Origin: a phage | Length of the DNA stretch: 64,000 nucleotides | Sequence record: NC_101835.1 | Strand: one strand, 5' to 3' | Shown: positions 44,048-46,056 of the stretch, piece after piece | How the letters are laid out: the number at the start of each line of letters is the position of its first letter | Position numbering within the stretch: the stretch's first letter is position 1 | Notes under the pieces: model-generated | What the model was told of the DNA's origin: nothing | Database searches by the model: none | The model's input: the letters and a program-made list of their open reading frames with translations, nothing else | Position numbers and translations under genes: made by a program

Positions 44048-44602
44048 TTACTCCCCGCTGTCAATAGCAAAACTCATTGCAATACGGTATGCCTCTTCTA
44101 ATGGTAAGAGTCTCCCCCACACATCCCAACCGACATCAAACTGTCTGCCAAACAACTGTTGTGTGGTTCCGTGAGCATGACCGAACAGTTGGACTGATCC
44201 GTGAGGCTTTCTGTTCCACTTTGCAAACTGGTAATGGCTCATACAGATCAAATTCTTGTTGTGGCGAAGCTCGTAATAATCTACAACCTCATGACCGAAC
44301 TCTTTCATAATTCTGACAGTCGTCCTTGTGTCATGGTTGCCACGAACAAGAATAATATGTCCGTTCAACATATTTAGAACATCTGGGAGCAATTTGTTGA
44401 TATTCTTATCATTAGTGCACGCAATATCTCCCAAGTGAAACACAGTGTCTGCAGGTGACACAACAGAGTTCCACTTGGTGATGATTCCCGCATTCATACT
44501 GTCAAGATTGTGATCATACTGAGATCTGTGTTTTTGACATGAATCGAACTCCATGACCCGCTGGTGGAGAAAGTGTGTGTCGCTTGTTACAAAGTATTTC
44601 AT
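44048..44602 (-). CDS. metallophosphoesterase (calcineurin-like), candidate RNA 2',3'-phosphate/3'-phosphatase
   Basis: Track ORF trimmed to ATG (MKYFVTSDTHF...) with GAGGAA RBS; motifs SDTHF, GDIA, GNHD, GHAH. Confidence 0.6.
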   Translation of the reverse strand: MKYFVTSDTHFLHQRVMEFDSCQKHRSQYDHNLDSMNAGIITKWNSVVSPADTVFHLGDIACTNDKNINKLLPDVLNMLNGHIILVRGNHDTRTTVRIMKEFGHEVVDYYELRHNKNLICMSHYQFAKWNRKPHGSVQLFGHAHGTTQQLFGRQFDVGWDVWGRLLPLEEAYRIAMSFAIDSGE

Positions 44603-44609
44603 ACATTCC

Positions 44610-45020
44610 TCATTTAAGTTTAATGCAGTTTTTAAGCTGGCGTTCCATACGATCCACAACCCTGTCTGGAACATCATGAATGCTTTTATTACCATGGCGG
44701 TTTTCAACCACGATCACGGTATAACTATACCCATGACTGATCGCCATGTCAATATATTCTTGCACATATTTTTCTTTTGTAAACGTATTACTTACCACGA
44801 TACGGTCGTATCCCATACGCATCATATCTTCTACGTTATCTTTGCACCATTTTGCTGCAAGTGTTACTTTACTTGCATCCCAGTTATAATTTCCATCATC
44901 GTCGTACCAGAACATGTCGTTCTCAAAATGTGGATACAGACCTTCTAAAGATAGCGCATTTGCCAGTGTTGATTTGCCAGACCCTGGTAGACCACGCACG
45001 ATATATAGCATTTTAGACAT
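44610..45020 (-). CDS. P-loop kinase, candidate polynucleotide 5'-kinase
   Basis: Track ORF trimmed to ATG (MSKMLYIVRGLPGSGKSTLANA...) with GGAGGA RBS; Walker A GLPGSGKST; immediately upstream of the phosphatase and divergent from the RNA ligase. Confidence 0.55.
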   Translation of the reverse strand: MSKMLYIVRGLPGSGKSTLANALSLEGLYPHFENDMFWYDDDGNYNWDASKVTLAAKWCKDNVEDMMRMGYDRIVVSNTFTKEKYVQEYIDMAISHGYSYTVIVVENRHGNKSIHDVPDRVVDRMERQLKNCIKLK

Positions 45021-45120
45021 AGTAATCCTCCGTTTTAATTTCAACGATAGTATACCCAACTGTTTTGTTAATTTCAAGTGTTGACACCAGGTTATTTGTG
45101 TGGCAGGATAGACTGACAAA

Positions 45121-46056
45121 ATGACAAATGAGGAACGCATGATGAAGTATTTTAATGCAGACGACCTAGTTGACAAAGGTCTTGTAACCAGCAGATATTA
45201 CCCAGATCTTGGATTAAAGATCTATAAATATGCCAGAAAAGTATTTTACAACAATTTATGGCATTTGTCTCCTCGTTTGCTGGAGTGCCGAGGCATTGTT
45301 GTAGGTAATGAAGGGAATGTTGTGGCATGGCCCTTCACAAAAGTGTTTAACTTGGGAGAAAACTCCACCAACCTGCCTGACAATAAGCTTGTGACGGCGG
45401 TAGAGAAAAAGAACGGATTCCTTGGTGTGGTATCATCTCATAAAGGTGACCTATTGTTCTCAACAACCGGGTCTCTTGATTCTCCATATTGTAACCTTGC
45501 AAAGGAAACCATCCAAGAGCAATGTGGTAATTTAGATCTTATCAAGAAGGTTATGGGCAATGAAAACATGACATTCATGTTTGAAATTTGTCACCCTTCA
45601 GATCCGCATATTGTTCAAGAAGACCATGGCGCATATTTGATAGGTTGCAGATATAATGATTCTGGAATAATGCTACCAGAAGCAGCTTTAGATGGGATTG
45701 CCAAATACCTTGGTGCAAAACGTCCTCACACTGTGCGTGAAATCCCGTTCAGCTATGCAAAAGAATTAGCTGCAGAAACAAGGGGCGAAGGGTATATGAT
45801 CCGTAAGCCTTACTACCCTTATGACCTGCAGCTGAAGATCAAGTCTCCATACTATTTGGCACGGAAGGCCGTAATGAGAGGTAAAGCATGGAAGATTTGG
45901 GATGACGATATTTTTAAACGTGTTGACGAGGAGTTTTACGGTATGGTAAAATTTATTCGTAGCAACTATACAGAAGATGTGTGGAATTGCTTATTAGAGC
46001 AGGAGCGTCGCGAGATACTGGACTGCTATTTCCACAACGAGGACTATATGCAATGA
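45121..46056 (+). CDS. RNA ligase, T4 Rnl1-like
   Basis: 311 aa; LLECRGIVV, TKVFNLGENS and nucleotidyl-transfer motif VEKKNGFLGVV parallel T4 Rnl1 ALECRGIMF, EKFFNLNENP, LTKEDGSLVS (recalled from memory). Confidence 0.7.
   Translation: MTNEERMMKYFNADDLVDKGLVTSRYYPDLGLKIYKYARKVFYNNLWHLSPRLLECRGIVVGNEGNVVAWPFTKVFNLGENSTNLPDNKLVTAVEKKNGFLGVVSSHKGDLLFSTTGSLDSPYCNLAKETIQEQCGNLDLIKKVMGNENMTFMFEICHPSDPHIVQEDHGAYLIGCRYNDSGIMLPEAALDGIAKYLGAKRPHTVREIPFSYAKELAAETRGEGYMIRKPYYPYDLQLKIKSPYYLARKAVMRGKAWKIWDDDIFKRVDEEFYGMVKFIRSNYTEDVWNCLLEQERREILDCYFHNEDYMQ

Follow-up and report, generated by a model that had tools for sequence, protein, structure and literature searches.

We have analysed a 64,000-nucleotide stretch of sequence record NC_101835.1 (hereafter the window), which derives from an rV5-type Escherichia coli phage of the genus Vequintavirus, and describe here three of its genes, encoding a P-loop kinase, a metallophosphoesterase (MPE) and an RNA ligase, which we consider likely to constitute an RNA heal-and-seal pathway of the T4/Pnkp style. 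In such a pathway a host ribonuclease would nick a tRNA or another RNA to leave a 2',3'-cyclic phosphate and a 5'-OH; the kinase would phosphorylate the 5'-OH to give a 5'-PO4, the MPE would hydrolyse the cyclic phosphate and remove the resulting monoester to leave a 3'-OH, and the ligase would then seal the ends via lysyl-AMP formed on its residue K96. The cassette most likely mends cut tRNAs, and would presumably serve the phage as a countermeasure to host defence. An initial annotation of the window had placed the kinase and MPE genes on one strand and the ligase gene divergent from them, and the open reading frames (ORFs) are found exactly there (Table 1); the Metallophos, AAA_33 and RNA_lig_T4_1 profiles all match with scores above the Pfam gathering thresholds. 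The locus is already known by prediction, as Iyer, Burroughs, Anantharaman & Aravind (Viruses 2022, PMC9503650, section 3.7.3) described the phage V5/Proteus phage Mydo neighbourhood as a predicted RNA-repair system comprising a T4-like tRNA ligase, cREC, a nucleotide kinase, a sirtuin, a MazG pyrophosphatase and a calcineurin-like phosphoesterase, and the survey reported here refines its conserved core.

Linkage of kinase, phosphoesterase and ligase genes

Comparative genomics provides the strongest evidence that the three genes are functionally linked. We surveyed 80 IMG/VR viral loci encoding relatives of the ligase (35-88% identity), each spanning ±6-8 kilobases (kb) around the seed gene, and scanned their ORFs with hidden Markov models (HMMs) made from the window proteins, the kinase counts being those of the HMM built on alignment A2. 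A kinase, either separate or fused, is encoded within 3 kb of the ligase at 70 of the 80 loci, an MPE at 59, and both at 53, in at least five gene orders. The order of the genes (RNL, ligase; KIN, kinase) is MPE>RNL>KIN at 23 loci, KIN>RNL>MPE at 14, MPE>RNL>cREC>KIN>Sir2 at six and cREC>MPE>RNL>KIN at three; at 11 loci kinase and ligase form a single ORF of about 430 amino acids (aa), and the remaining orders, which are minor or reflect cassettes incomplete within 3 kb, account for 22. In one of the fusions (L050:7527-8825, where L denotes a surveyed locus) Pfam recognizes AAA_33 at residues 16-115 and RNA_lig_T4_1 at residues 184-367. Genes that stay linked through repeated rearrangement, and that also become fused, are classically taken to share a pathway, and the kinase, MPE and ligase are the conserved core of the cassette. 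The co-localization of end-healing and sealing genes proposed in the initial annotation is thus borne out. The divergent layout does not point to a special design: the cassette is usually co-directional, and the divergent order is found in the survey only in rV5 and in one close relative (a single locus, L002, whose ligase is 88% identical).

Related arrangements are present in cellular genomes. In Cardiobacteriaceae a kinase-ligase fusion, found at four genome-contig loci, is followed immediately by an MPE gene, and in Leptolyngbyaceae a single protein of 712 aa contains kinase, Metallophos and ligase domains (L100:4726-6864 of Leptolyngbya sp. PCC 7375, and about 25 other loci among L091-L120). 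The healing domains of the L100 protein match those of CthPnkp (4gp6 at 3.5e-11 and 4j6o at 2.5e-24), and the ligase domain belongs with the rV5/Rnl1-like type and not with Rnl4. A Hen1 gene was looked for beside that of the trifunctional protein and is absent, while an RtcB ligase is encoded 1.6 kb downstream; the Leptolyngbyaceae protein may be a Hen1-independent variant of Pnkp.

The RNA ligase

With 1,679 matches the ligase family is large, and its members are about 300 aa long. Single-sequence searches of the PDB with the ligase, and likewise with the kinase, returned nothing useful and family profiles were needed; the ligase profile (29 sequences) matches T4 Rnl1 (2c5u) at E=2.8e-13, and HHalign comparison with six T4-type Rnl1 sequences gives a probability of 97.6% (E=4.8e-12), with phage residues 32-268 corresponding to T4 residues 32-288. 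The lysine nucleophile of the KxxG motif and nucleotidyltransferase motifs III, IV and V are all present in register with T4 Rnl1. Across the 29 family members, residues R57, K74, F76, K96 (motif I, KKNG), E155, E223-G224, K239 and K241 are invariant, and these are equivalent to T4 Rnl1 R54, K75, F77, K99, E159, E227-G228, K240 and K242 respectively; the roles of R54 and K75 in the T4 enzyme have been described (PMC6379707). An AlphaFold2 (AF2) model of the ligase (predicted local distance difference test score, pLDDT, 92) ends in a short C-terminal helical module, and Foldseek searches with it identify, each at about 1e-11, Rnl3, T4 Rnl1 (22% identity, template modelling (TM) score 0.62) and the ligase domains of Trl1. 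A 'tail fibre attachment' label that stems from T4 gp63 was rejected as an uninformative one copied by homology, and nothing in our analysis bears on that role.

The kinase

The kinase comes from a very large family, with more than 8,000 matches and members of about 130 aa. Its P-loop, G10-LPGSGKS-T18, conforms to the pattern GxxGxGK[ST] and is followed about 20 residues on by the putative general base D35, which aligns with the catalytic Asp of Pnkp1. All 37 sequences compared share residues R9, G10, G15, K16, T18, D35, N78-T79, E83 and E106-N107-R108-H109, and at least 90% of them share G13 and S17. When the family profile was compared with the PDB the top matches were RNA and tRNA 5'-kinases, with the Mucorales Trl1 kinase 9d8a first (2.9e-6), followed by Capnocytophaga Pnkp1 4xrp (5e-5), PSTK, T4 Pnk (1e-4) and CthPnk (7.5e-4). 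Comparison of structures gives a similar picture, with the AF2 model (pLDDT 84) matching T4 Pnk (1ly1/2ia5) with TM scores of 0.74-0.78, CthPnk with 0.74-0.77, and PSTK and Pnkp1 with 0.71-0.74, but UMP-CMP, gluconate and adenylate kinases with only 0.5-0.6. As modelled, the fold is nearer to those of polynucleotide kinases than to those of nucleotide or small-molecule kinases, and we propose that the protein is an RNA 5'-OH kinase and a minimal member of the polynucleotide-kinase clade.

The metallophosphoesterase

The metal-binding motifs of the MPE (D8-x-H10, G58-D59, G88-N89-H90-D91, H123, G141-H142 and H144) are invariant in 28 sequences, apart from D91, which is conserved in at least 90%, and the same residues are at least 90% conserved across 61 sequences. 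The closest solved relative identified by the family profile is aq_1665 of Aquifex aeolicus (1xm7), which is matched over the full length at E=1.4e-27 with all of the metal-binding motifs; other matches in the PDB are GpdQ, YfcE, MJ0936, an MPE nuclease and Rv0805. As a structural-genomics MPE, aq_1665 provides a fold for the phage protein and no biochemical information. By analogy with bacterial Pnkp, for which a binuclear MPE is established as an RNA 2',3'-phosphatase (PMC2190708, PMC3675462), we propose that the phage MPE acts as an RNA 2',3'-cyclic phosphodiesterase and 3'-phosphatase. The candidate for healing of 3' ends is indeed a separate MPE and not a HAD domain, as the initial annotation had pointed out.

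Accessory genes and a possible NAD+-dependent pathway

By ending the locus at the ligase stop codon, the initial annotation missed three genes downstream that are predicted to be co-transcribed with it and that encode a cREC protein, a Sir2-family enzyme and a MazG-like protein (Table 1). The ligase stop and cREC start codons overlap by four nucleotides (ATGA), the cREC-Sir2 and Sir2-MazG gaps are 8 and 14 nucleotides, and a terminator-like hairpin follows; the rightward unit thus appears to consist of ligase-cREC-Sir2-MazG, closed by the hairpin. The leftward unit is kinase-MPE, with seven nucleotides separating the kinase stop from the MPE start, and the kinase and ligase starts face in opposite directions across the intergenic region.

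Table 1. Features of the predicted repair locus and its surroundings, with window coordinates
Feature	Coordinates	Strand	Details
tRNA gene cluster	40432-41156	-	ARAGORN and Rfam
Metallophosphoesterase (MPE)	44048-44602	-	184 aa; Metallophos_2 E=1.7e-6, Metallophos E=4.1e-6; PHROG 547 'phosphoesterase'; rV5 gp076 'phosphoesterase'
P-loop kinase	44610-45020	-	136 aa; AAA_33 E=2.7e-10; rV5 gp077 'ATPase'
Divergent intergenic region, kinase start/ligase start	45021-45120	.	100 nucleotides
RNA ligase	45121-46056	+	311 aa; predicted ATP-dependent; RNA_lig_T4_1 E=1e-14, 55.4 bits vs 28.3-bit cut-off; rV5 gp078 'RNA ligase 1'
cREC protein	46053-46403	+	116 aa; PF20274 cREC_REC E=9.1e-14; rV5 gp079, annotated hypothetical
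Sir2-family NAD-dependent enzyme	46412-47173	+	Pfam SIR2 E=6.9e-28; rV5 gp080
MazG-like nucleotide pyrophosphohydrolase	47188-47901	+	PHROG 671 E=5.4e-22; rV5 gp081
Terminator-like GC-rich hairpin	47908-47925	+	7-base-pair stem with 6 GC pairs, then T-rich tail
ATP-dependent DNA ligase	48528-49811		Pfam scan of window

The cREC protein scores 52.3 bits against the 27-bit cut-off of PF20274 ('cyclic-phosphate processing receiver domain'). The domain was defined in a 2021 study of jumbo phages, which linked it to RNA ligases, predicted its catalytic function to be the opening of cyclic phosphates, and also noted calcineurin-like phosphatases in phage RNA repair (PMC7824862). Residues D9, D10, D51, D53, T88, N90 and P91 of cREC, a set in keeping with the acidic pair, phospho-acceptor Asp and T/S residues of receivers, are invariant in eight sequences with identities down to 22%, and its K96 is at least 90% conserved in 12 ligase-locus sequences but not invariant in a more diverse set. 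A cREC gene adjoins the cassette (within 3 kb) at 12 of the 80 ligase-seeded loci, two of which, L034 and L069, are distant. A survey seeded with cREC itself recovered 31 loci, and rV5-type partners occur at 11 of these; at the others the neighbours are mixed, with one HAD_SAK_2 ('Swiss Army Knife') RNA-repair phosphatase, one ADP-ribosyltransferase and several genes of unknown function. Given these mixed neighbours we do not take cREC as a proven general marker of RNA repair. As an accessory gene it recurs alongside the cassette, and in this phage its translation is coupled to that of the ligase; the protein probably assists in cyclic-phosphate processing.

The Sir2 protein retains the motifs GAGxS, TTNVDD and H109-G, and the EExxE...D residues of the MazG-like protein are conserved, although the latter has no match in a Pfam scan. 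Both genes are restricted in their association with the cassette: Sir2 is tied to it only in rV5-like relatives of about 145 kb and lies within 3 kb of the ligase at 11 of the 80 loci, and a MazG-like gene is present at 14 of 81 loci (the 80 viral loci and rV5), all of them rV5-like relatives. In a Sir2-seeded survey, genes for ligase, kinase, MPE and cREC are all absent within 6 kb at 37 of 51 loci. Sir2 genes that are 54-57% identical to that of the window (L153-L170 and others) occur on contigs of 104-122 kb lacking repair genes within 6 kb, and the rV5 annotation notes that its Sir2 is similar to a Sir2-like protein of phage T5. These occurrences suggest that the function of this phage sirtuin clade is probably independent of the ligase cassette. 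The Sir2 and MazG-like genes are therefore placed outside the conserved core, co-transcribed with the ligase in this phage and with an uncertain link to repair.

The same genes have been assigned to a six-gene NAD+-dependent pathway (Iyer et al. 2022, PMC9503650), in which cREC or the MPE would open the 2',3'-cyclic phosphate to a 2'-phosphate, the ligase would seal the 3'-OH,2'-PO4 end in the manner of Trl1, the sirtuin, acting like Tpt1/KptA, would remove the 2'-phosphate at the junction through ADP-ribosyl transfer, and the MazG-like enzyme together with cREC would clear the ADP-ribose cyclic phosphate by-product. The tight packing of the four rightward genes ahead of a hairpin, the conservation of catalytic residues in all four products, the recurrence of the four-gene set in about 12-14 relatives of about 145 kb and the presence of cREC beside the cassette at the distant loci L034, L069 and L146 are all consistent with this scheme, which has the further merit of being a published hypothesis (PMC9503650; PMC7824862). 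It is the chief alternative to our reading, but we nonetheless regard it as unlikely. Sir2 and MazG are missing near the ligase at 66 or more of the 80 ligase-seeded loci while the kinase and MPE persist; most Sir2-seeded loci, including those with Sir2 genes 54-57% identical to that of the window, are devoid of repair genes within 6 kb; and one lineage has Sir2 some 30 kb away from a cREC-MPE-ligase-kinase cluster (L004/L129 compared with L181). The proposed 2'-PO4-binding residues of Trl1 sit, moreover, in a C-domain unique to Trl1 (PMC6379707), and both Sir2 and cREC would have to perform reactions that are without precedent for them. The scheme is not mutually exclusive with the core heal-and-seal pathway, and could be grafted onto it as an rV5-like extension in which cREC is an RNA 2',3'-cyclic phosphodiesterase and the sirtuin an RNA 2'-phosphotransferase analogous to Tpt1/KptA. 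If true, this would assign two enzyme activities never shown for those folds, but it is weakened by the lineage-limited linkage of Sir2 and we consider it more doubtful still.

Evidence against the heal-and-seal reading and remaining alternatives

Several observations weigh against a heal-and-seal function for the kinase, MPE and ligase. No phosphoesterase is recognizable within 3 kb at the 11 kinase-ligase fusion loci, and a Pfam scan of L050 likewise finds none. In the one alignment available, the kinase family has Phe or Trp (D-M-F-F/W) where the RDDFR motif of Pnkp1 has Arg; the Arg just past the catalytic Asp (Arg38 in T4 Pnk, Arg41 in CthPnk) binds the acceptor phosphate. With the MPE profile, neither the CthPnkp phosphatase 4j6o nor lambda phosphatase 1g5b is among the PDB matches at E<=0.1, although in a positive control 4j6o is readily matched by the cyanobacterial fusion L100; by sequence the MPE therefore falls in the aq_1665 family and outside the CthPnkp/lambda-phosphatase clade, its likeness to bacterial Pnkp is one of enzyme type and not of family, and its chemistry on RNA ends is proposed by analogy. 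Literature searches found no biochemical or genetic work on rV5-type proteins.

The ligase also departs from T4 Rnl1 in its C-terminal part. HHalign finds no aligned counterpart of T4 C-domain residues 289-374, and the approximately 65 residues that follow motif V in the phage protein form a small helical bundle. The phage ligase thus lacks most of the C-terminal domain (about residues 255-374) that in T4 Rnl1 confers specificity for the tRNA anticodon loop, and appended domains define ligase clades (PMC6379707). The score of the ligase against the NCBIfam RnlA equivalog model TIGR02308 is 38.6 bits, far below the cut-off of 242 (for PF09511 it is 55.4 against 28.3), and with the short C-terminal module this leads us not to class it as a T4 RnlA equivalog. 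The Rnl1 signatures noted in the initial annotation thus hold for the nucleotidyltransferase domain and not for the C-terminal part, and the protein is best described, as judged by these comparisons, as an Rnl1-like ligase with a short C-module and not as an orthologue of RnlA.

An ATP-dependent DNA ligase gene lies to the right of the locus (Table 1), and one is encoded within about 8 kb at 42 of the 81 loci (80 viral and rV5), which counts against an exclusive role in RNA repair and raises the alternative that the kinase and phosphatase serve DNA or general end processing, for example at DNA nicks with 5'-OH and 3'-phosphate ends destined for the nearby DNA ligase, the link to the RNA ligase being secondary. 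T4 Pnkp and mammalian PNKP can process DNA ends, and kinases in the Pnk clade use DNA as well as RNA; the structures 1rrc and 3zvn are, in addition, among the matches of the kinase model. The kinase, however, is fused to the RNA ligase and never to DNA ligase, and at most loci the kinase and MPE genes directly adjoin that of the RNA ligase while the DNA ligase gene is kilobases away on either side; being a replication gene, its nearness can be explained by conserved gene order. We therefore think this explanation very improbable as an account of the cassette, although the nearby DNA ligase means that the enzymes may have some use on DNA ends.

There is similarly little likelihood that the MPE degrades small nucleotides (2',3'-cyclic nucleoside monophosphates (2',3'-cNMPs), cyclic oligonucleotides or ADP-ribose cyclic phosphate (ADPr>P)) as a separate anti-defence activity, with 3' healing left to cREC or a host enzyme: its nearest relatives are either uncharacterized (aq_1665) or small-molecule phosphodiesterases (GpdQ, YfcE, MJ0936 and Rv0805), the kinase-ligase fusion loci have no MPE nearby, and Iyer et al. 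leave room for processing of ADPr>P by the calcineurin-like enzyme (PMC9503650), but the MPE gene directly flanks that of the ligase in most gene orders, it immediately follows the kinase-ligase fusion in Cardiobacteriaceae, single kinase-Metallophos-ligase polypeptides exist, and CthPnkp shows that the superfamily can heal RNA 3' ends (PMC2190708).

tRNA genes and other features of the locus

Repair of tRNAs by the heal-and-seal cassette would have a candidate source of substrates in the phage's own tRNA cluster, which lies 2.9 kb beyond the MPE gene, in keeping with the proximity remarked on in the initial annotation, and contains genes for tRNA-Met, tRNA-Thr(UGU), an odd tRNA-like RNA, tRNA-Ser(UGA), tRNA-Tyr and tRNA-Arg(UCU). 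Genes for tRNAs or tmRNA are present within about 8 kb of the ligase at 31 of 54 related loci, a count made without control for relatedness, and this proximity is suggestive of a role in tRNA repair.

The cluster has several unusual features of its own. The odd tRNA-like gene (40589-40687, minus strand; 97-99 nucleotides) is situated between those for tRNA-Thr and tRNA-Ser; ARAGORN assigns it a four-base 'anticodon', atcc, and Rfam scores it as a tRNA with 35.5 bits against a gathering score of 29 bits. rV5 contains exactly this sequence, without annotation, and L002 conserves it as well; the gene could encode an intron-containing tRNA, a frameshift-suppressor-like tRNA or a decoy. At one end of the cluster an ORF for an HNH endonuclease (40044-40385, minus strand; 113 aa) abuts a truncated remnant of a tRNA-Pro(UGG) gene of about 25 nucleotides (about 40397-40420). 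This tRNA gene is intact in rV5 and L002, and neither ARAGORN nor Rfam finds a tRNA-Pro in the window; the HNH ORF looks like a homing-endonuclease insertion that destroyed the phage tRNA-Pro gene. Elsewhere, a tmRNA gene is located about 5 kb downstream in the fusion contigs L046, L050, L054 and L055 and is also present at L067, which has separate kinase and ligase genes, and suppressor-type tRNAs with anticodons CTA or TTA are found at several ligase loci (L058, L061, L063, L067 and L070).

A consensus scan of the region between the kinase and ligase genes identified a sigma-70-like site on the minus strand upstream of the kinase (TTGAAA-17-TATACT, 45077-45049) and called no full plus-strand promoter for the ligase within these 100 nucleotides, although a TTGACA at 45081 faces that gene. 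Promoter-like sites overall number 18 against a shuffled expectation of 12±3, a modest excess, and we therefore draw no conclusions as to promoters. The cumulative GC skew reaches its minimum in the same intergenic region, being negative leftward and positive rightward, and this minimum marks the switch between the leftward and rightward transcription blocks of the genome.

The 2.1-kb region containing the three core genes (44000-46100) matches 117 phage records at 97-99.8% identity, with Escherichia phage V5 (NC_011041) at 97%. The closest records (MG065658, MG065661 and MG065682; 99.8% identity) are unannotated and labelled as 'Campylobacter phage' C7, C9 and A112b; the remaining close relatives of the region are all E. 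coli rV5-like phages, and the host label of these three looks doubtful.

Comparison with known RNA-repair systems

Defence systems that cleave tRNA are very common in bacteria, with PrrC, RloC, PARIS, retron-Septu, OLD, Cas12a3 and Cas13 named in recent papers, and, T4 aside, the RNA-repair countermeasures of phages are almost wholly predictions. The cassette described here, with its three small proteins, is compact. It occurs widely among phages of about 90-150 kb, and its carriers include rV5-like coliphages tractable in the laboratory. It thus offers a practical system for asking whether heal-and-seal pathways other than that of T4 rescue phages from tRNA nucleases, and what functions an aq_1665-type MPE and cREC have.

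The closest published description is that of the V5/Mydo system, which is the same locus, all six of its genes being present at 44048-47901. That account is centred on the sirtuin, for which an action like that of KptA/Tpt1 in removing 2'-phosphates was proposed, and regards the phosphoesterase as 'occasional' (PMC9503650), whereas in our survey the kinase and MPE are the constant elements and Sir2 and MazG belong to one lineage; both are predictions. The functional reading given in the initial annotation is largely right, but its suggestion that the phage system was independently assembled is overstated, given the bacterial precedent, the wide distribution of the cassette and the earlier publication of the locus.

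The logic of healing and sealing is shared with T4, in which Pnkp (PseT) and Rnl1 (RnlA) act against the PrrC anticodon nuclease. The phage kinase has, as modelled, the T4 Pnk fold with a P-loop and a putative Asp general base, and the ligase resembles Rnl1 in its nucleotidyltransferase domain and N-terminal sub-module, with all of the motif residues. The T4 3'-phosphatase, however, is of the HAD (DxDxT) type and shares a polypeptide with the kinase, where the phage has a separate, putatively binuclear MPE; T4 Rnl1 is longer (374 aa, compared with 311), and T4 rnlA is not adjacent to a kinase gene.

In two of its predicted enzymes the cassette also resembles the fungal and plant Trl1 (ligase-kinase-cyclic phosphodiesterase) acting with Tpt1, which likewise unites an Rnl1-like adenylyltransferase with a P-loop RNA 5'-kinase; the Trl1 kinase is the top match of the kinase profile and Trl1 ligase domains are among the top fold matches of the ligase. 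Trl1 differs in having a 2H cyclic phosphodiesterase, in requiring a 2'-PO4 that is later removed by Tpt1, and in the unique C-domain that contains the proposed 2'-PO4 site (PMC6379707).

All three enzyme types predicted for the phage are shared with the bacterial Pnkp-Hen1 systems (Clostridium thermocellum Pnkp and Capnocytophaga Pnkp1-Rnl-Hen1), which combine a P-loop 5'-kinase, a binuclear MPE and an ATP-dependent ligase (PMC2190708, PMC3675462), so that the use of an MPE in RNA end healing has a precedent. CthPnkp was earlier put to a complementation test in yeast trl1-delta (PMC1920235). CthPnk and Pnkp1 are among the best matches of the phage kinase in both sequence and structure. Pnkp is, however, a single polypeptide with an Rnl4-type ligase that needs Hen1, whereas the phage encodes separate small proteins, and no Hen1 is present at this locus. 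These two designs are bridged by the Leptolyngbyaceae trifunctional protein, in which healing domains like those of CthPnkp are joined to a ligase of the rV5 type.

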